DNA of 55,579 nt from a virus (lineage: Duplodnaviria > Caudoviricetes): positions 1 to 55,579 of the IMG/VR virus record IMGVR_UViG_3300035523_000006; one strand, written 5' to 3'. Positions 39,719 through 55,579 of the stretch are shown one piece after another. Position 1 is the stretch's first letter, and each line of letters starts with the position of its first letter. The notes under the pieces were generated by a model that ran no database searches, had not been told where the DNA came from, and saw nothing but the letters and a program-made list of their open reading frames with translations. The position numbers were made by a program, and so were the translations under genes.

Positions 39719-39748
39719 AAAAGAAAAAGGCCGCCGAAGCAGCCCTTT
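39719..39748 (-). terminator. intrinsic terminator
   Basis: GGCTGC-TTCG-GCGGCC followed by TTTTCTTTT. Confidence 0.75.
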
Positions 39749-39768
39749 GGATGTGTTGTGGTGGAGTC

Positions 39769-40695
39769 TTAGCGACCAGGGAAGAAGCGCGAGAAGCCGT
39801 TACCCGCCACCGGATGGGTCAGCAGCCCAAGGCCGGTGTTCTGGATCTGCTTCCAGCCTTGTTGCGCCTCTGGGCTCATCTGCTGCGCGAGCAGGCCCTG
39901 AACGCGAGGCGCGAGGTCGCCGTAAAAGAGCGCGTCCATGCGCGGGTCCATGCTCTTGGTGACGTTCTCGTCTTTCTTGACGCCTTGCGAGCCAGCCAGA
40001 GCGCCGAGCGCAGTTGCGCCGAGCCCGAGGTATGGCGCGAGCGCTGATCCAGCGCCGAGCGTTGCCATCTCACCGGGCATAGACGCCAGCGCGGGCATCC
40101 CCGCTGTGCTCAGCGTGCCCATCGTCCCGAGCGTTCCAGCACCGCCAGCCGCCCCGCCATTCATCACGGCGCTGTTCAGTGCGCCGCCGTCGAACGAGTT
40201 GCCGAGCGCCGCGCCTGCCGCACCTTCGGCGCCACCCGCACCGCCGACGCCGTTCATGACCGTGCTATTGAGGATGCCGCCGTCAAAGGAGTTGCCAGCC
40301 GCACCGGCAGCGCCCGCACCCATCGAGCCGAGCACCGCAGGCGCCATCCCCGCCGCAACCAGCGCAAACGGCAGGTACGGGTTCGCATACGCGGGCGAGG
40401 ACATGTCCCACGTCCCCGAGCCGGTGTTGTTGCCCTGCGTGTCGTACAGATCGACAGCGGTGTTGCGGTTGCCAGCCTGCCCGTCAGCCGTGCGATACCC
40501 AGCAAGCCCGCTGTATTGGCTGTTGCCGCTGCCGCTTTCCGCACCGGAACCGTCACCAGCGAACTGATACCGCGGCACGTAGTTGTAGCCGTCTCTCTGC
40601 GCCAGGGCATCGGTCGGGTTGATGTGGCCCAACATCGATTGCTGCCATATGCGCTGCAGTTCCGCGAGTTGATCCGCCGTCAAATTGTTTGCCAT
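39769..40695 (-). CDS. Gly/Ala-rich ejection protein (gp7-like position)
   Basis: Gly-zipper hydrophobic segments; GNSFDGG.LNS.VMNG x2. Confidence 0.6.
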   Translation of the reverse strand: MANNLTADQLAELQRIWQQSMLGHINPTDALAQRDGYNYVPRYQFAGDGSGAESGSGNSQYSGLAGYRTADGQAGNRNTAVDLYDTQGNNTGSGTWDMSSPAYANPYLPFALVAAGMAPAVLGSMGAGAAGAAGNSFDGGILNSTVMNGVGGAGGAEGAAGAALGNSFDGGALNSAVMNGGAAGGAGTLGTMGTLSTAGMPALASMPGEMATLGAGSALAPYLGLGATALGALAGSQGVKKDENVTKSMDPRMDALFYGDLAPRVQGLLAQQMSPEAQQGWKQIQNTGLGLLTHPVAGNGFSRFFPGR

Positions 40696-40704
40696 GAGGC
40701 CCCC

Positions 40705-41007
40705 TTAAGCTGCTGTCGTGACAGCCGCCCACGTTGTGGCGCCGTCCGTGTTGATGTAAGCCCGCGTGCTGGTGCTAGAACCGTCCGAGCGCAGGTAGAG
40801 AGAGCCCTTGCCCGCTGAAAACGTAGGTGCGCCAGTGCCAAAGAAGATTCCAATCAGCGCCTTGTCCGGCGCCGCCTTCATTGCTTCCAATGTGATGTAC
40901 GGCTCTGCGCGGTTCGCAGCCGCCCTGATGGCCTGTTGAAGCCGTTGCAGGAACGTGCGCGACGGCCCGACATCTGGCGGAACATCCAGCGGAACGAACG
41001 TCCTCAT
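40705..41007 (-). CDS. small tail protein
   Basis: G.GAP...A.KGSLYLRSDG......YI motif seen in fibre domains. Confidence 0.6.
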   Translation of the reverse strand: MRTFVPLDVPPDVGPSRTFLQRLQQAIRAAANRAEPYITLEAMKAAPDKALIGIFFGTGAPTFSAGKGSLYLRSDGSSTSTRAYINTDGATTWAAVTTAA

Positions 41008-42743
41008 CGCTTGCCGCCAGACTTCACATCAAGGTCAGCGGAGCGCAATTTCAGCTTGTTCCCACCCGGGACCGCCGCCGTGACAAGCTTGAGTGCGACG
41101 AATCGGTCCTGTTTTCCCCTCAACTTCGCCATGTCGGTCGTTCCGGGCGTGTATGAGGCAGGGCCGGCGTAGGTAACGGCGCCGTCAGCCGTGTGTGAAG
41201 CTCCATGGTAGACCGAAACTCCGTTGCCGACAGAATCCTTGAAGTTCAGGCGTGACGAGTCGATATATTTCATCGTGTCGCGGTCGTCGAGATCGATGCC
41301 GACTCGCTCAAGGGTTCCCTGCACACCGGTTGACGCGGAGCTGTCCACGAGATCGATGTGAAACGAGTTGTCCACGACCACAAGGCGGCTCTGCGTGGTG
41401 ATCTGTGAAGGCCACAGGCCCTCGTTGGCAAACGAGATGCCGCCAGCGCTGCCAACCGTCGTCCCCAGATCGAAGATGCCCCACCCTTCACCAGGAGGCG
41501 CCTCCCAGTTCCACACCAGCGCCTTATCGCAGCCCTTCGTGCTCGAAGTAGTGGCGAAGCACACCCAAACCTCGGCCTTTTCCGGGTTGACGGTCAGAAA
41601 TATGCGGTCTGAGTGGCCGGAAATGTCAAAATTGGACGCGAGCCAGCGGCGAACGCAGCCCTCGGCGATGCTCTGCGCGTAGCCGCCCTGATGGATCTTG
41701 ATATCGAGGTTCTGCGTCAGGAAGACGTGACCCTTAGGCGTGTTGACCACGCACCAAGCCGCATACAGCCCGTCTTCCCCCGGAATGCGCGTGAACGAGA
41801 AAACGTCGTTTCCGCCGATGTACTGCATCGCATACATCGAGTCGCGCTTATAGACGATGTTCACGTCACCAAGCGGCAGGCAGTCGATCATCGTTCCCGG
41901 AGTTTCAGCCAGCGTCACGGAACCAGCGTCGTTCGTGTCCGATGCAGCGAAGGTCGTCGGCAGCGTTCCGGGCTCGGCCGCGTTCGACCAATACACCTCC
42001 TGATTACCGATGACAACGAGATAGTCCTTGAACGGGCGAACCGCGTTGACGCCGTTGATGATCGGGACGGCAAACGGTAACTGGGTGAGCTTTACCCCCG
42101 TGTTGCCGAGCCAATAGTAGATTCCGTCCAGCCGAGCGTGCAGGAAGAAGACGCCATTCAACGACCCTCCAGTCGGATAGGTAGCAAACCGCACGAAAGC
42201 AGCCGGGGTAGCTGCGTTGACGACGATGTACTGACCGACCGTCGTCGCGTTCGCGGCAATAGCCGTGTCAGTTGTGTACTGGAAGTGCGTCGCGTCAATG
42301 ACGGTGACGGGTTTCGAGACAACGTTGTAACCAGACTCCACCGCACCGATCCAGTGAATCGTGTCACCTGTAGCGAGGCCGTGCGCCGCTGTAGTGGCTT
42401 GCGCGGTGTTCGCCCCGATGCGGGTCAACGCGCTGACAGCAGCGGCCTGTCGGTTCGTCGGCGTGAGGGACGAGTGCACGCCTGACGAGAAGGCCGATAT
42501 GTTTTGGCGGTTCCCGTAGACGGCGCTTGCCGTGCCAGCGATAGGAGCAAACGGAAACAGGAACGCCGCGCCATCATCGGTCAGCGACGCCGCCGTGTTC
42601 TTGGAGATCACACCCTCGAACGTCTCTTCAAACCCGTTCTTGCTGCGGATGTTGAGCACGTCGGACCAGAAGCCGGCCGGCAGCTCCGATGGCAGCACGT
42701 CCTTGTTGACGCCCCTACCGAACGTGAGTCGTACATTGCTCAT
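41004..42743 (-). CDS. tail hub / packaged-DNA stabilization protein (gp10-like)
   Basis: About 580-aa beta-rich protein after the adaptor; V.WS and G.N.D..P motifs. Confidence 0.7.
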   Translation of the reverse strand: MSNVRLTFGRGVNKDVLPSELPAGFWSDVLNIRSKNGFEETFEGVISKNTAASLTDDGAAFLFPFAPIAGTASAVYGNRQNISAFSSGVHSSLTPTNRQAAAVSALTRIGANTAQATTAAHGLATGDTIHWIGAVESGYNVVSKPVTVIDATHFQYTTDTAIAANATTVGQYIVVNAATPAAFVRFATYPTGGSLNGVFFLHARLDGIYYWLGNTGVKLTQLPFAVPIINGVNAVRPFKDYLVVIGNQEVYWSNAAEPGTLPTTFAASDTNDAGSVTLAETPGTMIDCLPLGDVNIVYKRDSMYAMQYIGGNDVFSFTRIPGEDGLYAAWCVVNTPKGHVFLTQNLDIKIHQGGYAQSIAEGCVRRWLASNFDISGHSDRIFLTVNPEKAEVWVCFATTSSTKGCDKALVWNWEAPPGEGWGIFDLGTTVGSAGGISFANEGLWPSQITTQSRLVVVDNSFHIDLVDSSASTGVQGTLERVGIDLDDRDTMKYIDSSRLNFKDSVGNGVSVYHGASHTADGAVTYAGPASYTPGTTDMAKLRGKQDRFVALKLVTAAVPGGNKLKLRSADLDVKSGGKR

Positions 42744-42868
42744 CTGATCACCCAGGAGACGCAGCGAACCATTCCACTGGCAGAGACGGTGGACAGCGTG
42801 CAGAACTGCTGGTCATACGGACCAGAAGCGCAGCCGACCAAAGCAAGGCAGAGGACAAGCGCTTTCAT
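42740..42868 (-). CDS. 42-aa lipoprotein
   Basis: MKALVLCLALVGC lipobox; overlaps both neighbours; below the ORF track cutoff. Confidence 0.6.
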   Translation of the reverse strand: MKALVLCLALVGCASGPYDQQFCTLSTVSASGMVRCVSWVIR

Positions 42869-43512
42869 CATTCGCCATTGAAGATGTTGGAGCGCACGCG
42901 CGTCGAGAAGTCGGTACGAAGCGGCACGGCGCCACGAGCCCGGTTCTCTGTCGCCTTTAGCTCAGAGCACGCCTTGACGAATTTGGACTCCCACACGTTG
43001 AACAGATCAACGTCCTTCGTGTAGCGCGCAAGCTCCGAGAGAGCGCCCGACAGGTAGATGTCAGGACGGCGAGCCAGGAGGTAGTTCGTCGCGGTTGAGC
43101 CGCTGAGGTTCGACGATTTGATGTAGCGGAAGTACAGCGTGTACGCAGCCGCAGCGGGACAGTCGAATCGGATGTTGGCGCCGTCAATCGCGTAGTAGCG
43201 AGGAATTGAGTTGCTCGGGCTGTATGGAAGTTCTTCGGGCGCAGCTGGGTCGAGCATCGTGCGCACGTTTGTTCCGCTGCTGGCGACGATCCACAGCGCA
43301 ATCGGGCTGATGTAGCCGGCCGGAAGAGCGACGTAGTTCTGACCGATGACGCAGGTCAGCGGATCTTCCTGATCCATGTTCTTCAGGAGCAGCATGTCAT
43401 TCAGACGCGCTTCCGTCAGCGTCACGAAGTCAACGATCTGCGTCGTCAGGTCGGAGCGGTTGGCGAAGTCGGCAATCGCCGCCTTCAAGTTGGTATAGGT
43501 GTCGAGTGCCAT
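42868..43512 (-). CDS. head-tail adaptor protein
   Basis: TY..LKAAIADF.NRSDLT.QI.DF..L.EARLN; TNYL....PD.YL motifs. Confidence 0.8.
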   Translation of the reverse strand: MALDTYTNLKAAIADFANRSDLTTQIVDFVTLTEARLNDMLLLKNMDQEDPLTCVIGQNYVALPAGYISPIALWIVASSGTNVRTMLDPAAPEELPYSPSNSIPRYYAIDGANIRFDCPAAAAYTLYFRYIKSSNLSGSTATNYLLARRPDIYLSGALSELARYTKDVDLFNVWESKFVKACSELKATENRARGAVPLRTDFSTRVRSNIFNGE

Positions 43513-43515
43513 TTG

Positions 43516-43854
43516 CTACGCCTTACGGGGACGGCCAGGTTTGCGCTTGGGCGGTGTGCCCTCGTCGCGTGCTTCGTGCAGGCTCTCGGCACGCACGAAG
43601 CCATCGCGCTCGTAAGAGCGCGCCGTGGGCGCTTCAACGACTGGCAAGGCGACGACTTCGACGGGGACGATTGGCGCCTCCACAAAGGAGAATTCATCGC
43701 GCTTCTCTCCGCCAGTTGCACCCCCCGAGAAGTTTCCGACGACTGCGATAACTTCGCCCTCCGGCACCCACCCGTACTTGCGATGGCGCTCCAACTCGCC
43801 CGCGTCGTAAACGTGCGTAGCCCCGTGCTCGGGATGTACCATGCGAACAATCAT
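43516..43854 (-). CDS. small head-region protein
   Basis: GW motif and KRKPGRPRK tail. Confidence 0.6.
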   Translation of the reverse strand: MIVRMVHPEHGATHVYDAGELERHRKYGWVPEGEVIAVVGNFSGGATGGEKRDEFSFVEAPIVPVEVVALPVVEAPTARSYERDGFVRAESLHEARDEGTPPKRKPGRPRKA

Positions 43855-44621
43855 CTTTTCACCTCGTAAGGCTCGTCGTACAGGCCAGAGTCGCCGTTCG
43901 TCTCAATGAGCTTCTTCTTCAGCGCATCGGACACGGCGACCGTCGTCCATTCCTCGTCAGCGAGCAGCGCTGCAAGCAGCCCATCGCTCTTGTTCACGAC
44001 GTAATCAGGGAATGTGCGCATCAGAAGCGCTAGGTTCTCGGCCTGCAGCAGGAAATCTGGCGCGGTGATGAACTCGGCGCCATTCGCGCGCACGATCAGC
44101 AGTTCTTCATCCTGGTACGCACCGCTGGAAACGTGCCCGATCTCGCCAAAATCTGAATCGCACCCGAAGAACGCAACTCCGGGATAGCCCATACGCAGCG
44201 CCAACGCTGGCGCGCGTGATGCCGTCGTCACGCCACCGATAACGCCGTCCGTGGCGTGTTCGAGCATGTCGAACATCCGCACATCACGGCCCTCAAACAC
44301 TGATGGATGGCACGTAGAGGCGAGAATCGCCCGCTTTGCCTTTGACGCAAACGGCTTCGGGTCTACCGAAAACAACACTGAATCGATCCCTCTGGCCTCA
44401 AGCCAGTCGGGCATTGAATTGATGGCCCAGATGTCTCCGGGCCAGGCTCGCAACTCGTCCAGCCGCCCCAACAGCGACGGCCCGCCGCCAACAACAGCCA
44501 CAGCGTGCGGATGCACGCCCTTTTCCACCCTCGGATACGCAGAGGATGCGGCCATGTTGTCGGCCAGCCGCGTGTCTGACACATCGACATGCGGCCGGAA
44601 CGAGATGCGAAACGGCATCAA
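43851..44621 (-). CDS. MptE-like/Maf (DUF115)-type glycosyltransferase-fold protein
   Basis: VAVVGGGPSL...IWAIN...L...GI......VDP...GG.T....A..LA..MGY...FFGCDS...H motifs. Confidence 0.7.
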   Translation of the reverse strand: MMPFRISFRPHVDVSDTRLADNMAASSAYPRVEKGVHPHAVAVVGGGPSLLGRLDELRAWPGDIWAINSMPDWLEARGIDSVLFSVDPKPFASKAKRAILASTCHPSVFEGRDVRMFDMLEHATDGVIGGVTTASRAPALALRMGYPGVAFFGCDSDFGEIGHVSSGAYQDEELLIVRANGAEFITAPDFLLQAENLALLMRTFPDYVVNKSDGLLAALLADEEWTTVAVSDALKKKLIETNGDSGLYDEPYEVKR

Positions 44622-44875
44622 GAGCCCTTCAGCAGGCCCATGAGCACCAGAGAAGCACGAATGTTCTCCAGTTGCGCCGTGAAGGCAGCGAAAGCCGCCG
44701 AGGTCGTGAAGCCGAAGCCCCCGCTCAGCGCCGTCGTCAGCGTCAGCGCGGCTTGCGCCGAGCTGGTCGGCTGCGTGATCGGGGTCGCGCCCCAGAACGC
44801 CACTTTGTCAGCGGCGGCTTGGCCGAGTCGCGCGCCATCGGGGCGGCTGTCGGACAGTTCGTTGTAATCAGCCAT
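44618..44875 (-). CDS. small capsid-associated protein
   Basis: DG..LGQ...DKVAFWGATP..Q motif; immediately after the coat gene. Confidence 0.65.
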   Translation of the reverse strand: MADYNELSDSRPDGARLGQAAADKVAFWGATPITQPTSSAQAALTLTTALSGGFGFTTSAAFAAFTAQLENIRASLVLMGLLKGS

Positions 44876-44903
44876 GTTATTGGCTCCTTTGTCGAAATGA
44901 TGG

Positions 44904-44935
44904 GAAGAAAAGGGAAAGGGGGCCGAAGCCCCTTG
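44904..44935 (-). terminator. intrinsic terminator after the coat gene
   Basis: GGGGC-TTCG-GCCCC followed by a pyrimidine tract. Confidence 0.7.
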
Positions 44936-44951
44936 GTGGCGAGCGCTAGGC

Positions 44952-46196
44952 TCAGTTCGTCAGACGAGTGGCCCACGCCGGGCGGAACGTCTTGAAGCCG
45001 TAGATAACGTCGAGACGGACCAGCAGTTCGTCGTTGCGGATGTCCGAGGCCATCCACACGCGCATGGACAGGCCGTCCAACTTGCGCACCACGCACTTGG
45101 CGGCGTCGTCCATGATCGGCAGGTCGGCCGTCACGAACGCGAACGCGTCGCGGTGGTACATCAGGTTCTGGCGGTACGCCGTGGAGGCGGAACCGACTGC
45201 CGTCAGCGTCTGCGAGTTGAAGTCGGTCGTCGCCAGTTGCGCGCCGGCAGCGCTGCAGACGTTCTGCTTGGCGCCGGTGAGGTACGTCGCCGGGCTGATC
45301 GTCATGTCGCCGCCAGAACCCGTGCCGGCGGTGTTCGTGAACTGCTGCAGGTAGCCCAGCGACTGCTTCGTTTCCGGGTGGCAGGCGTAGACACCAGCGA
45401 TGGTGAACACCTGGCCGACCGTGTACGTCACAGGCGATGCGGTGTCAGCCGACAGGGTAGTGCCGCCATCCGTCACGCCGGCCGCCGCGTCGGTCGTGCC
45501 GGTCACGTCCGAGCCGTTGGTCATCGTCCAGCAGCGCTCGTTCTCGTAGAAGTCGGCCATCGCCGAACGGCCGTAGAAGCCCTCGGTGAACGCCTTCTTG
45601 ACTTGCGAGTCCGGGTAGAACAGCGCCTTGTTGGCGTTCACGATGTTCGCCATCGTGATTGAGTCCAACTGAATCGAGCGGTTGGCATCCTTCGGGGCCA
45701 GACCCTGATTCAGACGAGCGCGAGCTAGGCCGAGCGCCGTGGTATCACCAGACGTGCCAATGGCGGTGCCGGCGGTGCCGACGAGGTTGTACGTCTCCTT
45801 GGTCGCCGTGGTTAGGCAGTCGCCGTCGATGCCCGACACCAGAACCGACATGGCCGGCTCGATGTAGCGCTTCGAGAACGAAGCCACTTGGCTGGGGTCG
45901 TCCGTGTTCAGGAGCAACTCGGCGCTGTTGAACTTCATGTCCACGCCGTCTTGCGTGGCGAGGGTCACCGTCTGGGTGCTTTCCGCTTGGTCTTGCACGT
46001 CCATGACGCGCGAGCCCTGACGGCGGATGTATTGGTTCGGCTCGCGAACCCGCAGCGTCGATCCGACCTTTTCGCCGGCCTTGCCGAACGAATCGTCGAA
46101 CTGACGGTTGATGCTGGAGATGAAGGTCGCCTTCTCGTGTGCGATGGCGAGCCCTTCCTTGGCGATCATGTCGATCACCTTGAACGTGTTGCTCAT
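44952..46196 (-). CDS. major capsid protein (P22 gp5-like)
   Basis: K.G.TLRVR.P, FS.RYI.PAM..L, NL.YHRDAFAFVTADL, R.DV.YG....RP.WA.R. Confidence 0.9.
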   Translation of the reverse strand: MSNTFKVIDMIAKEGLAIAHEKATFISSINRQFDDSFGKAGEKVGSTLRVREPNQYIRRQGSRVMDVQDQAESTQTVTLATQDGVDMKFNSAELLLNTDDPSQVASFSKRYIEPAMSVLVSGIDGDCLTTATKETYNLVGTAGTAIGTSGDTTALGLARARLNQGLAPKDANRSIQLDSITMANIVNANKALFYPDSQVKKAFTEGFYGRSAMADFYENERCWTMTNGSDVTGTTDAAAGVTDGGTTLSADTASPVTYTVGQVFTIAGVYACHPETKQSLGYLQQFTNTAGTGSGGDMTISPATYLTGAKQNVCSAAGAQLATTDFNSQTLTAVGSASTAYRQNLMYHRDAFAFVTADLPIMDDAAKCVVRKLDGLSMRVWMASDIRNDELLVRLDVIYGFKTFRPAWATRLTN

Positions 46197-46246
46197 TGGG
46201 GAACCTTTCAGCGCCTCTCGGCGTTAGAAATTGCTGACAGTGCGTG

Positions 46247-47167
46247 TCAGCGGCGTTTGTCCATCCGCTCGCGTCTCTTCGCCGCGTATTCCTCGGGCGT
46301 CAAGTCACTCAGGGACTTCGTGTTGGTCGCACTGCCGCCGCCCACCTTCGTCACCGGCTTTGGAAGCGGCGCCGCAGCGGGTTTCGCAGTACGTTGCTTG
46401 AGGAACTGGCTGTGTTGCAGTGCCGTATCGAAGACCTTCGCAACCTGTGGCGCGCTGATGAAAAGCTGCCGCAGCGTCTCGGGTTCAACCCCGTTGGACC
46501 GTGCGAAATCCTGTAGCTCTGCGTACTTCTTGGGGGACCAGTTCTTTACCTCGCGCATCACCACCGCCTCAGCGTCATTGGCGCGCTTAGAGGCCATGCT
46601 CTGCGCTGCCAACTGCATCTGCTGATTTTTCTGCGCCAAAGAGTTCGCCAACTGTCCGCGAGCGGTTTGTAGTTGCGTGAACTCCATCAGGGCCTCTTGG
46701 CCCTTTACCGGGTCTTGCGCGGCAATCGCGCGCATGTTCTGCGCCAGCCATGCCATGCGGTCGTCCAGCCCGTGCAGTTGCGCGATCTCTCGCACGTTCT
46801 CCTGCTGGAACTGTCGGAACTGCTGGAGTTGCTCGCGCTCGCCCTCGATTGCCCGGCGTTGCTCGGCTACCTCCTGCGTCTTCTGGGTGTAATCCTTCTG
46901 ACGGAGAAAGGCGTCCTTGAGCTTCTTGGGGATCTTGAGCTTTTCGCCCTCGTAGTCGATTTCCTCGCTGTCGTCCTCTGCGGGAAGCAGGGCGGCGGCG
47001 TCGGAGTCGTCGGCTAGAAGCGAGCCAGATTCCTCGGCTGCGTCCGTTTCCGGAGCTGCGTTGGCTTCTGGGGGTGCGGTGTTATCCACCGCAGGAGCAG
47101 CGAAGAGGCTTGCTGCATCCGGGGCGGAATTCTGCGGGGCCGCAGATTGTTCCTGAGAGTCTGACAT
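46247..47167 (-). CDS. scaffolding protein
   Basis: Acidic N-terminus, LRQKDYTQKTQ.VAEQR, coiled coil; precedes the coat gene. Confidence 0.85.
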   Translation of the reverse strand: MSDSQEQSAAPQNSAPDAASLFAAPAVDNTAPPEANAAPETDAAEESGSLLADDSDAAALLPAEDDSEEIDYEGEKLKIPKKLKDAFLRQKDYTQKTQEVAEQRRAIEGEREQLQQFRQFQQENVREIAQLHGLDDRMAWLAQNMRAIAAQDPVKGQEALMEFTQLQTARGQLANSLAQKNQQMQLAAQSMASKRANDAEAVVMREVKNWSPKKYAELQDFARSNGVEPETLRQLFISAPQVAKVFDTALQHSQFLKQRTAKPAAAPLPKPVTKVGGGSATNTKSLSDLTPEEYAAKRRERMDKRR

Positions 47168-47206
47168 TGAATGTCCTATGGGCGTCTCGCGACGGACCAT
47201 TGCTCC

Positions 47207-47234
47207 AATAAGAAAGCCGCCCGGAGGCGGCTCT
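47207..47234 (-). terminator. intrinsic terminator
   Basis: AGCCGCC-TCCG-GGCGGCT followed by TTCTTATT. Confidence 0.75.
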
Positions 47235-47268
47235 ACTCAGCGCGGGAGCTGTTCGCGCTTGGGTTCTA

Positions 47269-47805
47269 TCAATCTTTCAGCGCCAGCGTGTCAATGCCGT
47301 TGCCGCAACCTTGGCATACAACCGAAGCGATCTCGACCGCCTTACGCGCATCGAAGCCGCAAAGCATGACCGCCATTGCGGCCTCTGAGCCGACGCCTAC
47401 TGCGTATTGCTCGTTGAGCAGTTCAATCGGGTACGGAGTGCGCTGATACAGCCGCACAGCGCCGTCCCTCGTTATCGACAGCAGGCTTGAGTGACCGTCC
47501 TTGTCGCGCTGGCTTTCCGGGAAATCGGCCACGCTCGCGCCGGCCATGAACCACAGCGCGCCGTCCATAGCCTCAACGACTGGATAGCCGCCGAACTTCT
47601 GTTTCGCGTGCTTAAAGCTCGCAGCCGTGCCCAGCAAGCGCCAGTTCTTCACGCGATGCCAGCGCACAACCTTGCCCTCGGCGTCGATGCTCGTCTCGCC
47701 CGTTGGCTCGGTGATCGGCGCGCAGCGGTACACGCGCATACGCTCGGCGCCGCAGTCGCAGCACAGCATGCCAGCGCCAGTGGAGCAGTCGAGAGCGTGT
47801 TTCAT
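47269..47805 (-). CDS. chimeric protein with C-terminal half of an Ntn-hydrolase-like domain
   Basis: AVG.GS..AMA.M.CG.DA.KAVEIA C-terminus; no N-terminal Thr-start segment. Confidence 0.5.
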   Translation of the reverse strand: MKHALDCSTGAGMLCCDCGAERMRVYRCAPITEPTGETSIDAEGKVVRWHRVKNWRLLGTAASFKHAKQKFGGYPVVEAMDGALWFMAGASVADFPESQRDKDGHSSLLSITRDGAVRLYQRTPYPIELLNEQYAVGVGSEAAMAVMLCGFDARKAVEIASVVCQGCGNGIDTLALKD

Positions 47806-50303
47806 GCGCCCATGCCGTCAGGCGGCATCGTTTGTTGACCCATCGCAGCACCTTGCATCGGCATTGCGCCCATATCGCAGCCCTCGCCCGCATCCATCGG
47901 CTCGGATTCACCAGCCGCAAGCATCTGCCCGCCCATCTCGCCGGATTCCGCGCTTTGCGGGGTCGTCGTGAGCGCTTCCTGCACCGTTTTCATCACCAGC
48001 GCCTGAATCGACACCGGATCAAGCGTCGTCCCGAGCACCTTCAGCCGCTCAGTCTCGGCGTTGTATTCGGCAACGCGCATTTCGCGCTCGGCCAACTCGT
48101 GCGCCGCAGCCTTGAACGGGTCGATTTGCTGCGGCTGCATCACTTCGGGCTTCATCACCTCCGCGCGGCGCGTTTCGGCCTCGAATTGCTTGACCTGGAC
48201 CTCTTGCGCCTTGATCTGCAGCTCGCCTTGCTTGTCCTGGACCTGCTTTGTCAGCCCGCCAATCTGCTGCTGCAACTGCCCGATAGCCTGTTTCGCCTGC
48301 GCGTCCTGCTGCTGCAGCATGTTCTGCAGGTTCTGCACCATCGGATTGATCTGCCCCGCAGCCTGCGGCGGCAACACCGCCTTGAGACGCTGCGCAACCT
48401 GCTCCGCGCCGGGCCAATCCAGATTCTTCGCGAGCAGATCGCCAATGAGCGGCGCCGACTGCGGGAAGATGCGGATGAATTCCATCATCTGCTGGCTGGC
48501 TTCCTCGCGCCTAGTCGCAAAGCCAGGACCAGCCGTCACGGTCACGTCGTATTTGCCCGTCGTGAGGTCGAAAACCTTCGTGATCTTGCGCAGGTGCTCC
48601 AGCGCTTCGGGTGGCAGTTGCGCGGTCAACTCCGGCGTGACCGGAACGTACTCGGGCGGGCCTCCGGCCTCTTCCTGCGGCTCTTGCTGCGTCGGAGCGC
48701 CCATCGGCGGCATTGGCCCTTGCATCGGTCCTTGCGGGCCTTGCGGCGGCATTCCCGGCCCCATCGGAGCCGGACCCATCGGACCCATCTGCGGGGGCAT
48801 CGGCTGCGGCATCGGCTGCTGCAGTTTGCGCACCTCCTGCGCCGGGGCAACCTCCTGATTAACCGGAACCGCGTAGGTCGTGCCGTCCTCCTGCACGCAT
48901 CGCATGATCCGCTGCGCGCTGTACACCTTCGGGATCAGATCGATGATGATCCGCCCACCGTGCTCAACAGCCCGGTTGCGGTTGTCGATGAAATCGAACG
49001 TGGCAACGTCGCTTTGCCGATCGCGCGCATTGATCGCTCGCCCGCTCGTCTCGTTTGAGCGCTGGCCGAGGCTGGCGTCGTAAATGTTCATGATCGACTT
49101 CATGTCGTCTTGAGCATTCGCCGCCTCTTGCAGCGCACCGGCCGGAACGCCGGCAAAAGGCTGGCGCTGCGGGTACATGCCTTCAGCACCCGGCACCACG
49201 TCAAACTCGATGTACTGATGCGCGACACGGTTGGCCGTCTGCCACTTCGCATGATCGGTGACGAACATCCCGACCGGGCCGACCCACGGCGCTTTCGGGC
49301 TCAGCGCAACCAGTTCCGTCGCCGAGGTGCGCCAGTAGTTGAAGTTGCGCTGCGAGTCCTTGGCGCGGCGAACAAGCGAAATGAAGTAACGCTTGCCGTT
49401 GATGTTCACTTCCTCGCCATACATCGGGACAATCGGGATGTACTTGCCGAGCCAGTCGTTTTCCTCGATTACGTCCGTGCCAGTCAAGATGCGCTGCTTG
49501 ACCTTGTGCGTTTTCGTCTCACGGTCGCCAACAATCGTAATGCCCTGCGCCGTCAGCGCCTCGGCAATCTTGACCATCTCGGCCTCAAACATCACCATGC
49601 CGTTGGACAGCTTGAAGATGCGAGCGTCTACCTTCTCGCGCGTCCAGTATTCGGCTACGCGGATGCCGTCGCCATCGAACCAGTTCTGGTCATCGTAATC
49701 ACCACCGCCGCTCTCGAAGCTCGCCGCCTTCCACTGTTTGCCAAATTTGGCCTCGAAGCTCGCCTTCCGGTACTTCTCTGTCACAAAGGCTCGGTTCCAG
49801 TCAATCGAGGTCGCTTCCTTGGACTCGTAGTCGCCGTACACGCTGAACGGGTTAGAGATGCGAGACAGGCGGATGTCCTGCTCGAATTCGTCCTCCGTCG
49901 CGTAGTCAACGTCAACGCGGAAGTACCCGAGCCCGCAGGAAACCGCGAAGTCGAACGCCGTGTCGTAAACGATGTCCGCTTGGCTCATCGTCTCGATGTT
50001 GCGCACCAGATCTGACAAGATGTTTGCCGTGTCCTTCGTCGCGCCAGAGCCGACCGGCTTGACGTTGATTGCGGGCCGGTTGATCCGGCCGTCGTTCGTG
50101 ACATGCTTGATGAAAGACGGCAGGCGGTTGATCGTCAGGCAGGGGCGCCCCTCTTCGCGGCGCTGGTCGATGTCGCGCTGGTCCCACTGCTTTTCCAGCT
50201 TGGCGAATTCGAGGTCGTCCTGAGACGCCTTGCGCTGCTCAGACTCGTTGTCTAGGCTAGCCTTGAACTCGTCGCGGGCGTCTTTGAGGGTGTCGTTTTC
50301 CAT
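47802..50303 (-). CDS. portal protein (P22 gp1-like)
   Basis: RPCLTINRLP, KYIPIVP.YG, AKDSQR..NYW, SNETSGRAI.AR, GKYDVTV..GP...TRR; ATG at 50303. Confidence 0.92.
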   Translation of the reverse strand: MENDTLKDARDEFKASLDNESEQRKASQDDLEFAKLEKQWDQRDIDQRREEGRPCLTINRLPSFIKHVTNDGRINRPAINVKPVGSGATKDTANILSDLVRNIETMSQADIVYDTAFDFAVSCGLGYFRVDVDYATEDEFEQDIRLSRISNPFSVYGDYESKEATSIDWNRAFVTEKYRKASFEAKFGKQWKAASFESGGGDYDDQNWFDGDGIRVAEYWTREKVDARIFKLSNGMVMFEAEMVKIAEALTAQGITIVGDRETKTHKVKQRILTGTDVIEENDWLGKYIPIVPMYGEEVNINGKRYFISLVRRAKDSQRNFNYWRTSATELVALSPKAPWVGPVGMFVTDHAKWQTANRVAHQYIEFDVVPGAEGMYPQRQPFAGVPAGALQEAANAQDDMKSIMNIYDASLGQRSNETSGRAINARDRQSDVATFDFIDNRNRAVEHGGRIIIDLIPKVYSAQRIMRCVQEDGTTYAVPVNQEVAPAQEVRKLQQPMPQPMPPQMGPMGPAPMGPGMPPQGPQGPMQGPMPPMGAPTQQEPQEEAGGPPEYVPVTPELTAQLPPEALEHLRKITKVFDLTTGKYDVTVTAGPGFATRREEASQQMMEFIRIFPQSAPLIGDLLAKNLDWPGAEQVAQRLKAVLPPQAAGQINPMVQNLQNMLQQQDAQAKQAIGQLQQQIGGLTKQVQDKQGELQIKAQEVQVKQFEAETRRAEVMKPEVMQPQQIDPFKAAAHELAEREMRVAEYNAETERLKVLGTTLDPVSIQALVMKTVQEALTTTPQSAESGEMGGQMLAAGESEPMDAGEGCDMGAMPMQGAAMGQQTMPPDGMGA

Positions 50304-50340
50304 TTTTCTCCGGCGTCTCTCGACGTTGGGAGGGCGGGTG

Positions 50341-51561
50341 TTAGCCCATCCAAGAGGTTCTGACAGGCGGCGTGATCGCCCGCTTGATCGCTTTGCCGGC
50401 TCGCCTCGCTCCCTCGCAGGCATACCGCAGCGCATCAATCGTGTGGTTGTTTTTGTCTTCCAGAATTGGAATGACTACGCCAGTCAGCGGGTCGGTCTTG
50501 TAGCAATACATCGTCAGTTCGTCGATGACGTGCTGACAGCGCGGATGCACCACGATATCGAAGCTGCGAAGGAACTCGACGCCTTCCTCCAACGACTTGG
50601 CGCCCTTGATCGCCGCCGTCATCTTCGGGAAACCGTTCTTCTGCATGTGGCTGATCGTTTCAGGCCGCGCCGAGTCGGCCACAATCGGCCACTTCTCAGC
50701 CTCCGGCACCGAAAAAAACAACTCCGGCAGGTTCACGATCTCACAGCCGACGCGGTACGCCTCGTAATCGACGTACAGCCGGTTTTCCTCAATCGAGCAG
50801 CGCACCAGCACGCTCGGATCAATCGAAAAGCCCCAATCAGCACCTAGCCGGTGAATCGTGCCTTTGGGCCGCTCGAATTCCTCAATCGTCCAGTTCTTGA
50901 AGACCCGCGCCTCAGAGTTGCGCTGGTACTCGCCTAGCCAGATATGCGCGTACTTCTCCGGGTCGCGCTTCCGGTCGTACTCAAGCTCCGCTCTCAGTTC
51001 CTCGGGGAGCCATGGGTTATCGCTGTAGTTCGCCTGCACCACAACCGCGCCAGGTGGCGGGCTTTCTCCGCGCAGGAGAACGTCAATCGGATCGGTCGGC
51101 AGGTTCGGGTTCCACGAGAACCACAGTTCGGAGCCGGCCTTGCGAATCGTCGGCCGGATCAGGTCAAGGCTGCGCTGACTCAGCGACTGCGCCTCTTCCC
51201 CCCATAGAACGTCATAGCCCTCCAGCGACTTGATCGACTCGCTGGTGTGGTCCTGCAACCCCTGGAAGATGATGACGCCGCCATGAACGCTTTTAATCTT
51301 GCTATCCAGAACCTCGAAGTAGGCCCCGGCGTTCATGCTGGCGATCTTGCTGGCAAGCAGCTTCTTGACCGACTGCTCCAGCGACTTCTGAATCTCACGG
51401 GCGCAGACCGCATCGGTCTTCGCCATCACCGAGCGCTCAATCAACAGCTCGGCGAAGAAGTGCGACTTACCGGATCCACGGCCACCGTGAGCACCTTTGT
51501 AGCGCGCAGGCTCTAGCAGCGGCTCGAAGACTGCCGCCGTCTCTATCGTGAGCGCCGTCAC
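50341..51561 (-). CDS. terL: terminase large subunit (PBSX family)
   Basis: GGRGSGKS Walker A, W.EEA Walker B, GADWGF..DP, NH.IDALRYA. Confidence 0.95.
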   Translation of the reverse strand: MTALTIETAAVFEPLLEPARYKGAHGGRGSGKSHFFAELLIERSVMAKTDAVCAREIQKSLEQSVKKLLASKIASMNAGAYFEVLDSKIKSVHGGVIIFQGLQDHTSESIKSLEGYDVLWGEEAQSLSQRSLDLIRPTIRKAGSELWFSWNPNLPTDPIDVLLRGESPPPGAVVVQANYSDNPWLPEELRAELEYDRKRDPEKYAHIWLGEYQRNSEARVFKNWTIEEFERPKGTIHRLGADWGFSIDPSVLVRCSIEENRLYVDYEAYRVGCEIVNLPELFFSVPEAEKWPIVADSARPETISHMQKNGFPKMTAAIKGAKSLEEGVEFLRSFDIVVHPRCQHVIDELTMYCYKTDPLTGVVIPILEDKNNHTIDALRYACEGARRAGKAIKRAITPPVRTSWMG

Positions 51562-51664
51562 TGCTTAAAAACTAAGCAGATTTCCGCGAACCCCTGTCTC
51601 AGCCCGCGTTTCACGGCACTTTTTCGGCGAAATGAATACTTGCGCATTGCAAAGTTATCCACAG

Positions 51665-51982
51665 TCACGCCTTGACGATTCGCCGAACGATCTCAGAGAA
51701 CAGGTGTTCGCCGTTCTCGCCTGGACCGACAATCGACTGCTCCGGCTTACCCCAGCCTCGATCAAGCAGCGCATTGGCCGCTGCCACCTTGCCAGCCGCG
51801 CTGTCGGACTCCAGCACTTCAACCAGCGCCGCGACAGCAGACGCGGTGTACTGCCTTGCCAGCTCGCGGACGTGCTTTACGTCCTCGGGCAGCTTTGGTC
51901 TGCCACCCGGATTGCCGCTCTTGCCTTTCGGAAAGGACCGGCCACGCGGTTTTTTACTGCTCTCAGCGGCTTTGTTAGCCAC
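51665..51982 (-). CDS. terS: terminase small subunit (DUF5681-type)
   Basis: F.KGKSGNPGGRPK; AA..LLDRGWGKP.Q; upstream of terL. Confidence 0.8.
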   Translation of the reverse strand: MANKAAESSKKPRGRSFPKGKSGNPGGRPKLPEDVKHVRELARQYTASAVAALVEVLESDSAAGKVAAANALLDRGWGKPEQSIVGPGENGEHLFSEIVRRIVKA

Positions 51983-52268
51983 GACTAACTTTCGTATACG
52001 GCCCGCGATCCACGAGGTAGGTCCCGTTCTTCACATGCCCGTGCGAGCGCAGGAGCATGGCGAGACGGCGCTTACCCTCAACGTGAATCACGCATTCGTC
52101 GCCCACTCTCCGGGGCGGGAGCGATTCAAAGAGCGGCTTGTCGTCAAGCTCGGAGGCAACGGGCACTAGCCCGGATCCGCTGAAGGACACGCAAAAGCGG
52201 TTTGCCCTGCGGCGGAACAGTTCTGGTTGTTTGCTCATAGTACGAATCCCTCGCGGGTTGTTCGCTGG

Positions 52269-52529
52269 TTAAGCGCGTTCCTCGTTGCAATGGACCAACT
52301 CAATCCCGAGTGCCGCCAAGGATTGATGCGCCGCCAAGATCCTCTCAATCAGCTCTTTGCGCACTGCGTCACTCGGGACGGCAACGTTAATCGTCTCCTG
52401 GTCGAAAGCCTCACGAACCACAAACGGCACCGTCCATCCTTGCAGACGGTCTTTCGCCGCTTCGTACTGGCGAACCTTGCGCGCCAACTCCAGTGCGGAA
52501 TACAGTTGATCGATGGTGAGTTTCTTCAT
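52269..52529 (-). CDS. hypothetical protein
   Basis: AGGA RBS; late-strand ORF. Confidence 0.5.
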   Translation of the reverse strand: MKKLTIDQLYSALELARKVRQYEAAKDRLQGWTVPFVVREAFDQETINVAVPSDAVRKELIERILAAHQSLAALGIELVHCNEERA

Positions 52530-52565
52530 GGTGCGATTCCTCTAGGGTTGTTCGCGGTCACTAAC

Positions 52566-53027
52566 TTAGATCTGCGCGATGGCGTAAGCCTCGACCGTCT
52601 TCACGGCGGCGCTAGTCGGGGTGTAAGCGGCGTTGGTCACGAGGTAGCCCCAGACGCCGTTATCGCCTGCGCGGATCTGCTTGTTCACTTGATCGGTGCC
52701 GACGTACAGGGTCGAGCCAACATCAACCGGTGAGCCCATGCTGATCGAGCCAAGGTAGTTGTCGCGGTCACCAGCCGGCAAGTCCCATGCGGCGTTGTCG
52801 GGAAGGGCGCTGGGCGGATCGGCGTTGTAGAGATGCAGCGTGAAGCTGGCCATGCCCGCAGGGATGCTCGTCACGTGGATCGCCAGGGCAACCGACGTAA
52901 TCATCAGGTCGTATTTGTTGACCGGCATGCCTTTGAGCTTGAACGCGCCGCCGGCTACTACGTCACCAGCCGCGTAGGCGGTGGTATCGGCCGGGCGGGT
53001 CAGTGTTGATTTGGATTTGTATGCCAT
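52566..53027 (-). CDS. putative virion beta-sandwich protein
   Basis: TRPADTTAYAAGDVV; GGAG RBS; shares the leader hairpin of the head genes. Confidence 0.65.
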   Translation of the reverse strand: MAYKSKSTLTRPADTTAYAAGDVVAGGAFKLKGMPVNKYDLMITSVALAIHVTSIPAGMASFTLHLYNADPPSALPDNAAWDLPAGDRDNYLGSISMGSPVDVGSTLYVGTDQVNKQIRAGDNGVWGYLVTNAAYTPTSAAVKTVEAYAIAQI

Positions 53028-53245
53028 GTTCTACTCCGGCGCCTCGCGGCGTTAGAAGTGGTGGGAAAAGGGCTGGGCAGACGATTGCTTGTTGCGAGGT
53101 GGTGAGCGTCGAAGGCCCTCTAACCGGGCAATGCTCCCTGAGTGCTGCTTGCTCTCGCTGCCCATGCGGGTGGCGTCGATTGACGCGAATTCAGTTCAAT
53201 GCCGATTTGGTTTCGGCCTTACGGTGTCTGCGGGTTTACGCGCGG

Positions 53246-53554
53246 TCAGCACAGAACCGTGCCGGGCGGGAAGTGCTTGGCGATGTCCTGCAGCGTCCAC
53301 GAATAGGGATCGGGCGTCTGCGGAATCGGGCTGAGCGGCATCAGGCGAGCGGTTCCCTGCTCAAGCCGCGCCAGCCGCCCGCGCAGATCGTCCACTTCCC
53401 GGCGCAGTCGCTCAACCTCCGATGGCATAGCGGGCGCTTCCATGTCGCTGCGCCTCTGCTCGCAGTGGCAGAACGCCCCGGCGAAGCCATAGGCTTTGTT
53501 CGGCTCGGCGATCAGCCCGCCGCAGTGCTGGCAAGCGGTGTTGTATTGGCGCAT
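53246..53554 (-). CDS. hypothetical protein
   Basis: ATG at 53554; CxxC...CxC followed by a coiled coil. Confidence 0.5.
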   Translation of the reverse strand: MRQYNTACQHCGGLIAEPNKAYGFAGAFCHCEQRRSDMEAPAMPSEVERLRREVDDLRGRLARLEQGTARLMPLSPIPQTPDPYSWTLQDIAKHFPPGTVLC

Positions 53555-53581
53555 AGGAGGGCGGCGGCTTTGTTGCGCCGC

Positions 53582-53721
53582 AAAAGGAAAGCCCGCGTAT
53601 GGCGGGCTCTTGGGTGAGGGGTGCCGGGTCGCCCCGCCGTGAATGTCTGGCAAGACGTGAGGCTCCGAAAGCAAAGCGGCCCGGCGAACTCTGTTATACC
53701 GAAAGTCGATAGCGCCGTCCA
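53582..53721 (-). ncRNA. candidate ~100-nt sRNA with its own promoter and terminator (RNA C)
   Basis: TGGACG-17-TATAAC (53721-53693), GCCGGG/CCCGGC-closed multiloop, terminator GCCCGC-CATAC-GCGGGC-TTTCCTTTT. Confidence 0.5.
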
Positions 53722-53734
53722 GATATATCAATCC

Positions 53735-54085
53735 GGCATAGCTTAGGGAACGGGGCAAGACCCTAGGATGGACTTCCCTAGGCTGTCAGACTCTTTGCCC
53801 TGCGTTGTCCTGCCGGGGGAGGCGCGTAGCCTCTGGAGTCGTCTTGTGCAGTACCCTGTCTGTCTATCGAGGAACCCGTAACGTGGGCGATCCGCTTCAC
53901 CGCTTGCGCGGCGTCCATTTTCCTAGAGCCTCGTTTTGCCGTTTCACAGGGGATTACGGCCCGCCGGTCTTGCCATTGCAGCGGGTAGCGGTTCGCCGCT
54001 ACACGTCCACCTCTTTGATCCGTTCGGTTCAGTGGAGTACCAATGTCACGGCCCGGAGTGCCGCCAGCCTTTTACGTGGGCCAGA
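53735..54085 (-). ncRNA. candidate structured RNA B
   Basis: No credible ORF; multiple hairpins including CCGC-GCAA-GCGG; motif blocks shared with RNA A. Confidence 0.5.
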
Positions 54086-54088
54086 AAC

Positions 54089-54112
54089 GCAAAAACCGCC
54101 ACAAGGGCGGTT
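54089..54112 (-). terminator. tR'-like terminator
   Basis: AACCGCC-CTTGT-GGCGGTT followed by TTT. Confidence 0.75.
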
Positions 54113-54241
54113 CAGGGAAATCGGAGACGAGTTCGTCCATCGCAGTTCGATCCCCTTTCGGGGCATCGGCTCGGATGGTCGGGTGCGACAGGTCAAGCGG
54201 CCTGTGCGGTCCCTAGGGCCACTTCGCGCGGTCCTTGCGCG

Positions 54242-54270
54242 ATTATCGACCCTTGTCAAGTGGTAGTCAA
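54242..54270 (-). promoter_or_regulatory. late promoter (pR'-like, sigma70)
   Basis: TTGACT-17 nt-GATAAT, downstream of the Q-like gene, with a terminator about 130-145 nt later. Confidence 0.75.
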
Positions 54271-54286
54271 GCGTTTTTAGTGGTTT

Positions 54287-54757
54287 TCACGCTTTTAGGC
54301 ACGCCGGACAGTTTTTGCTCATACCGATGCCGCGGACGCACCGTCCTGGAGCAAGCGGGTGATCCGGCCGCAAGGCGTTGCTTTTCTCCGCCCCGCAATC
54401 ACAAGGGCCGGCCGGAAACGCTGGCTCGTTATGAACGGCGCAGTCGCTCGCGTGGCCGCAACAAGACGACGATTCAGTCTCCGTCAGGAACGCATACAAA
54501 TCATGCGTTTCCTTGCGGTGCGGCATGTGCTGCGCCATCGCAACAGCGGCCTCTTTAGCCGCCTGCCGAAGAGCCAGCAGCTCGCCCTCCAGCAGCTTGA
54601 CTTCGCGCGCCCCATTCGGCCGGACCTTCGCTAGGTCGTTCTTGTGGCAGTACATCGTCAGCGTCGAATCGTTGTCCAACGCTACGTCTGCAACCATCAT
54701 CCCCTCGCCCCATTCGGTGCGCGTCGGAGCCGTCGACCATTTCAGTTCATCGCCCAT
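54287..54757 (-). CDS. hypothetical protein
   Basis: ATG at 54757; HASDCAVHNEPA.PAGPCDCG motif. Confidence 0.6.
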   Translation of the reverse strand: MGDELKWSTAPTRTEWGEGMMVADVALDNDSTLTMYCHKNDLAKVRPNGAREVKLLEGELLALRQAAKEAAVAMAQHMPHRKETHDLYAFLTETESSSCCGHASDCAVHNEPAFPAGPCDCGAEKSNALRPDHPLAPGRCVRGIGMSKNCPACLKA

Positions 54758-54799
54758 GTTTCGCCCTTTCGCCCCGTATTCAGGGTATTTGGTATTCCT

Positions 54800-55176
54800 A
54801 GACTGCTTCTTGGTGGAGGGTTTAGGGTGCAGAAAGCCAACCCTGTCACCAGAGTTCTTTCCGCGTCTGCTTCCCGGAGCCAGGGCCTGAGAGCACAGAG
54901 CAAGGTCGAAACGCAGCCACCTTGCCTCGGAATCCTTTCGCGGGGCTGTGACCCACGCCTGTCGGGCGATTCCATTGCGCCAAAACCCGTCACGCTCCGC
55001 GATCCTGTTGGAGCCGATAACTGCCCGCTGCACAGTCGTCCCACAGCGGCTTAAGAACGAAGAAAGGCCAATTCCTACTGCGCTCTTGGTGCTGCCACAC
55101 AACCCGGTTGCCCGGCAAGAACGCATGAGGAATTGGCCTCGCGCGCGAGTATCGTTGGGCGGCAGCACATTGACAT
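54800..55176 (-). ncRNA. candidate structured RNA A with 5' three-way-junction hairpin and promoter
   Basis: ATGTCA-17-GATACT; 12-bp perfect stem AGGCCAATTCCT plus a 10-bp stem; CCGG-GCAA-CCGG; further stems downstream. Confidence 0.55.
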
Positions 55177-55238
55177 TAGGGATTTTGCTACCAAACCACT
55201 GTATAACACTGTTCGGCCCAAGTAAAGTTCTTGTAAAG

Positions 55239-55532
55239 CTACGCACAGGCGGCTCCCGATTCTGTTAGGAGCGCTTCGATTTCCTGCGCCAGCTTCGCTA
55301 TCTGCCGTGTCCGCTGTATCACCCCTGCCAAGCGGCTATCCGGGGCTACAGGCGCTCGCAGTGCTTCGGACGGCACATAGGAGCCAGCGTCCTCGATAAC
55401 GCGCTGTAGGCTCTTTCCGGCGTCCCATGCGCTATGCGGGCAGTCCTCCCACGGCAGCACGTCACAGCCGCAGGAACGCACCTCCGCAGGCCCTGTGCTG
55501 CCGAATGATCGGGAGTGGATGCGATCACCCAT
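55239..55532 (-). CDS. hypothetical protein
   Basis: ATG overlaps the end of the Q-like ORF. Confidence 0.5.
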   Translation of the reverse strand: MGDRIHSRSFGSTGPAEVRSCGCDVLPWEDCPHSAWDAGKSLQRVIEDAGSYVPSEALRAPVAPDSRLAGVIQRTRQIAKLAQEIEALLTESGAACA

Positions 55533-55579
55533 AGAACGCCTGCGCCGCGCCCTTCTTGGCCTGCCCGATGCAGCCCCTA
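55525..55579 (-). CDS. 3' end of the Q-like gene (wraps from position 1)
   Basis: Joining the ends reads ...MGKAKGG-RGCIGQAKKGAAQAFYG*. Confidence 0.6.
   Translation of the reverse strand, partial: RGCIGQAKKGAAQAFYG

Follow-up and report, generated by a model that had tools for sequence, protein, structure and literature searches.

RNA-based controls of terminator read-through are few in phages and related elements. The put elements measure about 70 nucleotides (nt), form two stem-loops and stand before the first terminator. In the lambdoid phage HK022, put is described as controlling read-through in early operons by RNA only, in cis on the nascent transcript (PMC9378689), and the canT element of Tn916 is described as a 452-nt cis-acting RNA processive antiterminator lying under what was long annotated as orf5 (PMC11658703). 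The element considered here, E, comes from a 55,579-nt stretch of Caudoviricetes DNA (IMG/VR record IMGVR_UViG_3300035523_000006, positions 1 to 55,579, hereafter the window), where it forms tract A of the minus strand. It matches no Rfam family and is apparently uncatalogued; judging from sequence comparison, it probably belongs to a conserved, structured non-coding RNA family. An earlier model-made reading of the bare letters (the sequence-only reading) had proposed tract A and a second tract, B, as two diverged copies of one structured RNA of about 300 nt. It was partly right: tract A is a genuine candidate RNA family, while the idea of two copies was wrong.

54795 to 55052, minus strand: tract A, or element E, a conserved non-coding RNA-like element of about 255 nt (covariance model R1, viral contig L245, other sequencing runs)

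As far as the description of canT goes, both it and E are non-coding, several hundred nucleotides long and carried by mobile elements; an orientation-specific, promoter-proximal position in an operon with several intrinsic terminators is counted as shared; and both lie under spurious open reading frames (ORFs), orf5 for canT, ORF 55044-54742 and P0004-P0025 for E. The likeness is one of description and not of sequence, the hosts differ (Firmicutes for canT), canT stands upstream of the terminators that it suppresses whereas E directly follows a terminator-like hairpin, and the activity of E is a proposal (PMC11658703). The likeness to put would lie in RNA-only, cis-acting control (PMC9378689). 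Unlike put, E is ~255 nt long, has at least five helices and comes after a terminator, and the Rfam search shows nothing put-like. A catalogue of conserved structured RNAs (csRNAs) from IMG/VR, the 'DNAVirus_X' set, holds unnamed candidates from phage intergenic regions, including some that adjoin terminators and precede genes (Fremin et al. 2023; PMC10690425). As described there, its candidates measure 29-151 nt, required at least three IMG/VR regions and were drawn solely from stretches without gene calls. By that description E differs in length (~255 nt), in number of IMG/VR members (two) and in lying under called ORFs; it would probably have been missed, and an overlapping model may exist in the catalogue (PMC10690425). 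A literature search found no description of an element like E.

The family was reached through proteins that are not real. A protein search with the spurious 100-residue ORF over tract A (55044-54742) returned one 'hypothetical protein', P0004, at 83% identity, and a scan of viral contigs with P0004 led to L245, in which positions 5148-5400 align with tract A at ~70% identity. A 21-nt block, 54882-54862 (TGGCTCCGGGAAGCAGACGCG), is identical in the two, and several shorter blocks are kept. R1 scores 288 bits on tract A (E-value 1.5e-75) and 285 bits on L245, whose whole record holds one copy. When a profile of three spurious-ORF translations was run against 1.84 billion representative proteins, 21 clusters were found at E-value <= 1e-3, eight of them at <= 1e-10. 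These clusters (P0004 and P0006-P0025) are spurious gene calls in which a non-coding element is translated in assorted frames. In their alignment, from which P0024 was omitted, the same conserved nucleotide blocks appear in differing frames, as PWLREA, HGSGKQ and ALAPRS, as TGLA and RVGF, and as LNRSPRS and PSTVHQEA. Because the blocks recur in different reading frames, conservation must be at the nucleotide level, which we regard as the sole explanation. The back-translations in IUPAC code of 18 of the 21 align to the nucleotide hidden Markov model (HMM); P0021, P0022 and P0024 do not.

Direct searches gave little beyond L245, and the members of E in the IMG/VR scans number two. The blastn comparison of the region with phage and plasmid collections gave no match. 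With nhmmer, the tracts were found in none of 235 loci (80 fetched with the terminase TerL, 73 viral and 80 metagenomic with gene P0001, and two with a 153-residue protein), nor, with nhmmer and blastn, in four loci fetched via gene P3; TerL is common to related loci at 66-80% identity, and the region upstream of it is not shared. R1 had no significant match in 241 other loci (best 12.4 bits, E-value 0.37, in L006). Exact 20- to 22-mers of both tracts were absent from the viral contigs searched; an exact 18-mer gave the contig of L245 and one chance match inside a coding region (L246). The sequence-only reading had been unable to assign the RNA to a named family, and the comparison with Rfam 15, which takes in ribozymes, group I and II introns, riboswitches, GOLLD, ROOL and HEARO, c4/IsrK and others, agrees: no match reached a gathering threshold across the window. 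Over 53000-55579, three matches at E-value <= 10 (all >= 0.88 and far below gathering) were obtained, none in tract A or the tract B core and two elsewhere in the studied span. Elsewhere in the window, a weak R1 match at 19412-19549 on the plus strand (12.7 bits, E-value 0.023) involves the outer helices only and sits in a 375-nt stretch without a gene call by a crude gene finder. Repeats of a boxA-like UGCUCU in tract A were dropped as candidates, not being kept in L245.

That the two minus-strand tracts lack proteins, as the sequence-only reading had claimed, is borne out by the frame plot of third-position GC content (GC3), which is flat over about 55238-54755 and 54286-53555; in the flanking genes the GC3 spread is 0.3-0.5, with clear periodicity in P0001, P0002 and the minus-strand genes beyond. 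None of the eight ORFs overlapping the tracts had a Pfam match at E-value <= 1, and a search for tRNAs found none. Contigs of four other public runs were placed on 53200-55579 at a likeness of at least 80%, and the stretches kept in those metagenomes end where the earlier boundaries had been drawn, at 54804-55050 and 53746-54064. Contigs from soil and groundwater runs (three runs) cover tract A, the hairpin before it, tract B and P3 at 80-100% identity, the covered stretches being 54783-55212 (tract A and hairpin), 53620-54064 (tract B and beyond) and 55329-55534 (P3), while P0001 is essentially uncovered. Since the tracts are covered and P0001 is not, both are discrete modules, better conserved than the adjoining genes.

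The pattern of change in tract A is not that of a protein gene. An X2 contig over 54804-55050 carries 26 substitutions and five separate single-base deletions, with diverging flanks. By our own count, the 24 listed substitutions are spread 6/8/10 over the codon positions of the overlapping ORF, with no third-position bias. Codon-type conservation, which would have spoken for a protein, was sought between tract A and L245 and was seen in no frame, the substitutions numbering 23/18/21, 18/21/22 and 21/22/17. As they fall evenly over codon positions in all three frames, the conservation of tract A is not protein-coding. Coding in the frame of ORF 55044-54742 is thus rejected, both by the even substitutions against L245 and by the single-base insertions and deletions in relatives.

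What tract A appears to keep instead is a fold of the minus-strand RNA. RNAalifold on the window and L245 gave 56 base pairs in 11 helices, with no pair broken and 11 altered in both partners. The helices that matter here, all predicted from the consensus fold, are:

55033-55022 with 54902-54893, minus strand: helix H2
55016-55010 with 54998-54991, minus strand: helix H3
54974-54968 with 54934-54928, minus strand: helix H5
54957-54952 with 54944-54939, minus strand: helix H7
54856-54839, minus strand: hairpin H10
54837-54833 with 54809-54805, minus strand: helix H11, 5 base pairs

Compensatory changes occur in H2, H3, H5 and H7 (for instance UGGAAUC/GAUUCCG versus CCAGAUC/GAUCUGG). At -59.15, the consensus energy lies below that of every one of 300 column shuffles (-35.95 +/- 4.99) and below that of the opposite strand (-46.05). 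In a control in which the 3' partners were slid by 1-3 columns, 33-45% of positions paired, with 0-1 double changes. A further comparison used the 18 back-translated relatives, only at positions fixed by the genetic code and leaving out the two sequences that define the structure: standard pairs make up 91.8% of 182 informative cells (28-60% with slid partners), and pairing survives 13 double changes (0-6 with slid partners). At columns 69/135, 16 of 16 sequences have U-G, a conserved G-U pair. The X2 changes in tract A fall at positions of higher unpaired probability on the minus strand (0.54 versus 0.38; naive permutation p = 0.011, inflated by clustering), and no such enrichment is seen on the plus strand. 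Against the single-sequence minimum free energy (MFE) fold, some half of the 29 X2 changes, substitutions and deletions taken together, are unpaired; four of the paired ones keep a standard pair and most break theirs, so that the single-sequence fold is a poor model of tract A. The GNRA-capped hairpins cited earlier as favouring the minus strand do exist, at 55115-55104, 54163-54152 and 53913-53898. Over 53555-55240, GNRA hairpins with at least 4 base pairs number five on the minus strand versus 1.37 expected from the window-wide rate, and none on the plus strand versus 0.94. Altogether, the evidence from sequence for a conserved minus-strand secondary structure of E is moderate and not decisive.

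The surroundings of E are conserved as well. Immediately 5' of it lies another structure:

55052 to 55170, minus strand: long terminator-like hairpin with a U-rich tract (inverted repeats, fold z-score)

Its arms are 55139-55116 and 55088-55065, and its loop contains the GCAA-capped hairpin 55115-55104; UUUCUUCGUUCUU follows, as a U-rich tract at about 55064-55052. The claim that a small structured RNA adjoins each tract holds well for this one, with a fold z-score of -3.18 and 0 of 200 shuffles equally stable, and less well for the leader before tract B (z = -1.94, 7 of 200 shuffles as stable). A simple terminator scan does not flag the hairpin 55139-55065. Over 55168-55065 a further repeat pair (55168-55154 and 55103-55089) alternates with the main arms as A, B, A', B', which implies either a pseudoknot or two competing folds. 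We read a variant at 55087 (T to C on the plus strand) as replacing A-U by G-U, and this for the minus strand alone. The companion claim, of a sigma70-like promoter upstream of each tract, stands for tract B (54270-54242) and is not confirmed for tract A, before which the scan flags none and only a weak TTTACT..TATACA is seen by eye. A sigma54-type reading of TGGCTCC..GCA was rejected by eye, its spacing being one base short. In contigs of X2 and X6, about 55190/55212 is followed directly by 55372/55393, with the 180-181 nt between missing, and these relatives therefore lack, or have replaced, the end of P3 and the putative promoter region 5' of the hairpin.

L245 has the same unit in another setting. 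The order there is a 67-residue helix-turn-helix (HTH)-like gene, TTGTCA-18-TATAGT (by eye), a hairpin of ~100 nt followed by UUUUGCUUUU, E, 48 nt, a 40-residue hydrophobic ORF, an O-like replication gene and a helicase; the hairpin has a fold z-score of -5.24. The unit of hairpin, U-tract, E and start codon is thus kept in both although the downstream genes differ. It can be followed in the spurious proteins too: 15 of 21 read the U-tract as G-F-C-V/F-S/W, 24-26 residues before the core block, and two further ORFs start too late to judge. A clean intrinsic terminator (GCCCGCC..GGCGGGC then T8) at L245:4715-4760 lies directly upstream of the HTH-like gene, so that this operon is also punctuated by terminators. 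The unusually long stems before E, with 24-nt arms in the window and ~100 nt of hairpin in L245, recall TerR of pLS20, described as antitermination-resistant terminators with long stems (PMC10325885). Were the hairpins operon-end insulators, E would need a promoter of its own, and the scan found none.

E is, then, non-coding, conserved, strand-specific and positionally fixed. We put at about even the chance that the region holds two unrelated leaders of which one, tract A, is a conserved cis-acting RNA element. As to what the element does, control of elongation or read-through is the reading that we prefer, tentatively and at somewhat less than even. E would be transcribed in the sense of the genes and would fold into a multi-helix domain (H2, H3, H5, H7), then the small hairpin H10 and the 5-base-pair helix H11. 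It stands ~75 nt after the U-tract of the long terminator-like hairpin in most members and at most 50 nt before the next start codon, and heads different operons, with the gene at the Q position following in the window and replication genes in L245. From the nascent leader it would act in cis, as leader RNA, on the transcribing RNA polymerase, and polymerases past the promoter-proximal terminator might then continue through the later ones (54113, ~53607, 44932, 39748). Among the roles floated by the sequence-only reading, catalytic RNA and R-loop primer are without support here, and antitermination RNA is a live reading. A bolder version, rather unlikely as we judge it, is that E with its hairpin and U-tract represents a new class, an RNA-only elongation switch of temperate phages that would reprogramme escaped polymerases or sense a host signal, gating entry into replication or late-gene expression.

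Several points weigh against this picture. E comes after the nearest terminator, whereas a put- or canT-type element acting on that terminator would have to come before it; E is not between a promoter and the first terminator but follows the 55139-55052 hairpin and U-tract, and it precedes only the later terminators. Folded as a single sequence, tract A has a z-score of +0.87 on the minus strand, with 157 of 200 shuffles as stable, and +1.01 on the plus strand; the whole gaps that hold the two tracts reach only -1.45 and -1.73, mostly owing to hairpins and terminators. Column shuffles give 8.1 +/- 2.1 compensatory pairs, and 36 of 300 reach 11; moreover, the structure was derived from the same two sequences in which the pairs were counted, and these two, the window and L245, are the real DNA members of E. 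The independent sequences are back-translations, aligned by HMM, in which a third of the positions are unknown, and of their 37 cells with a change relative to the window only 22 (59.5%) still pair, a share nearly matched by two slid controls (58-59%). Tract B, for its part, has no structural or family evidence, and its conservation could reflect recent common descent.

Could E be a leader that controls translation, or a riboswitch-like one? In that case an aptamer-like junction within H2-H7 would choose between pairings, the GAAGCAG repeat at 54875-54869 or that at 54809-54803 pairing with GGCUUU at 54838-54833 and toggling a downstream hairpin or the ribosome-binding site. The junction nucleotides between the covarying helices are conserved, the window and L245 each have two copies of GAAGCAG(A/U)C, a start codon follows the end of E within 50 nt, and in the spurious ORF P0019 what appears to be the real protein start comes directly after the second repeat. 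However, the downstream genes differ (P0001 in one case, a 40-residue peptide and an O-like gene in the other), which is unusual for a metabolite switch, H8-H11 are invariant and so lend a switch no support, and there is no ligand candidate; we regard this explanation as unlikely. A stable RNA cut from the leader and acting in trans, for example as a decoy or sponge against a host factor or defence system, would fit a discrete module with differing flanks among its relatives; the X2 contig over tract A at ~10 times the depth of neighbouring contigs also fits, and the 21-nt block that L245 shares unchanged with the window might serve as a binding site. Yet E has neither a terminator nor a promoter of its own, and its fixed place by a terminator and a start codon suggests cis action; we consider a trans-acting role quite unlikely.

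The tracts might also work as DNA, as operator or activator sites, a packaging site or an origin, with the hairpins as palindromic protein-binding sites. They do lie upstream of the terminase operon, the L245 copy adjoins replication genes, and the single-sequence fold energy is unremarkable, but G-U pairs, consensus energy, GNRA loops and the unpaired-position test all favour the minus strand, and no iterons or repeated boxes were found; such a role is improbable. That tract B, less plausibly tract A, is ordinary spacer that looks conserved because the relatives are recent and mosaic, with flanking genes swapped, has a little more in its favour while still being distinctly unlikely. Phage mosaicism is common, the known relatives of tract B are all at least 80% identical and it has no folding signal; on the other side stand the L245 copy of tract A, ~70% identical with the 21-nt block unchanged, its 21 diverged clusters, and several distinct variants of tract B with different flanks in one run. 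Lastly, the proposal that A and B are diverged copies of one large non-coding RNA class has a parallel anatomy in its favour, each tract coming after a short structured RNA with a U-tract and before a gene, and both tracts are kept as discrete modules in other runs. Alignment, nhmmer profile and covariance model all fail to link them. Local alignment of the two gaps scores 22, versus 21.0 +/- 2.3 for dinucleotide shuffles (101 of 300 at least as high), so that the ordered motif blocks said to be shared do not stand out; when the tracts themselves are compared under three more scoring schemes, the score of A against B is equalled or exceeded by 82-126 of 300 shuffles and by 136-195 of 300 native stretches drawn at random from the window. 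The nhmmer profile A1, made from tract A relatives, matches only its two source sequences and nothing in the window outside tract A at E-value <= 10, and R1 finds nothing in tract B with default filters and, with filters off, at best 0.5 bits (E-value 0.79) on a 15-nt hairpin. Motif chains picked by eye in this GC-rich DNA were at chance level. Common descent of A and B is therefore very hard to credit, and on these comparisons they appear to be two different leader segments, not paralogues. A 15-nt inverted repeat bracketing the region (55215-55201 and 53699-53685) was judged to be chance, because several pairs are equally good.

Tract B lies downstream of the putative late promoter:

54242 to 54270, minus strand: putative late promoter, sigma70-like, TTGACT-17-GATAAT (scan, 10 of 12 consensus matches)
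54083 to 54232, minus strand: short structured leader ending in an intrinsic terminator (terminator scan, fold z-score)
53746 to 54064, minus strand: tract B core, a non-coding module (several X2 and X4 contig variants with differing flanks)
53575 to 53607, minus strand: second terminator-like hairpin, GCCCGC-CAUAC-GCGGGC then UUUCCUUUU (by eye)

No sigma70-like site other than this promoter occurs on the two strands of 35000-54999; shuffles give 3.6. The leader holds the GAAA-capped hairpin 54163-54152 and its terminator at 54113-54093 with a T-run; on the minus strand of the late operon, terminator-like sites are found at 54113, 44932 (44932-44919) and 39748 (39748-39725), the latter two being strong and lying between late genes. 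A single promoter in 20 kb together with internal terminators implies one long late transcript that depends on processive read-through of some kind. Tract B forms the leader that separates the terminator of the late promoter from the first late gene, and its conservation is confined to close relatives: no relatives below ~80% identity were found, searches with spurious ORFs in two frames being empty, and its fold z-scores are +0.86 (minus strand) and +1.55 (plus strand). The hairpin 53575-53607, just upstream of P0002, is not flagged by the promoter and terminator scan.

In phage lambda, late genes are controlled by the Q protein at the unit PR'-6S RNA-tR'. The stretch 54270-54083 resembles PR'/tR' in having a strong constitutive-type promoter, a transcript of ~140 nt and a terminator, in closely following a small gene and preceding the genes for packaging and head, and in the several hundred untranslated nucleotides that follow the terminator, here tract B. 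Unlike the situation in lambda, the small gene that takes the place of Q here, P0001, has no match to any Q family. We know of no lambda counterpart of tract A.

The window, classed as linear with an estimated completeness of 77%, is a lambdoid-like temperate phage contig, and both tracts lie at its end, upstream of the packaging genes. The genes referred to are:

3160 to 3570, minus strand: NinB, early gene
7706 to 8458, minus strand: replication initiator, early gene
11257 to 11700, plus strand: CI-like repressor gene
23058 to 24230, plus strand: integrase gene
47802 to 50438, minus strand: P22-type portal, late gene
50341 to 51561, minus strand: TerL, late gene
53246 to 53554, minus strand: P0002, 102 residues, first ORF after tract B (translation, GC3 periodicity)
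54287 to 54754, minus strand: P0001, 155 residues, starting MGDELKW, at the lambda Q position (GC3 periodicity)
55239 to 55577, minus strand: P3, truncated by the contig end (ORF and translation)

Along the minus strand the order is P3, the long hairpin and U-tract, E, 41 nt, P0001, the strong promoter, the 140-nt leader with its terminator, tract B, the second terminator-like hairpin, P0002, small genes and the terminase. P3 has no match in Pfam or PHROG, and DNA inside it, 55329-55534, is kept in other sequencing runs. The minus-strand early genes, which run off the start of the window, also include a methyltransferase and several HNH endonucleases. Five ORFs of the HNH or endonuclease families (1127-2203, 5521-6237, 8459-9244, 9416-9937 and 22130-22786) are unusually many for one phage contig.

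P0001 has no sequence match in Pfam, PHROG or PDB and hence none to a Q family; tblastn against the phage collection was also negative, and its AlphaFold model (predicted local distance difference test, pLDDT, 43) is too poor for a fold search. The protein bears a Cys motif (CCGHASDCAVHNEPAFPAGPCDCG) at residues 100-123 (54385-54456). This motif, of 22-24 residues (..DCAVHNEPAxPAGPCDCG), is found at up to 95% identity in ~150 viral and metagenomic loci, in gut phages too, and at the N-terminus of otherwise unrelated proteins (such as L084:4085-4786 and L103:3983-4315), in L084 fused to what we take to be a Gp49-like region; it matches no Pfam family.

Gene callers cover E with 'hypothetical proteins', and RNA discovery restricted to intergenic regions would therefore skip it; the recovery of the family by a protein-database search with a spurious ORF shows that this blind spot is a practical one. 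The family counts at least 21 diverged clusters in public metagenomes. Should E be a functional leader RNA, it would be a sizeable and apparently widespread addition to the few RNA-based read-through controls of phages such as put and canT, and, if that is true, it would offer a testable handle on the timing of replication and late genes in non-model temperate soil phages.

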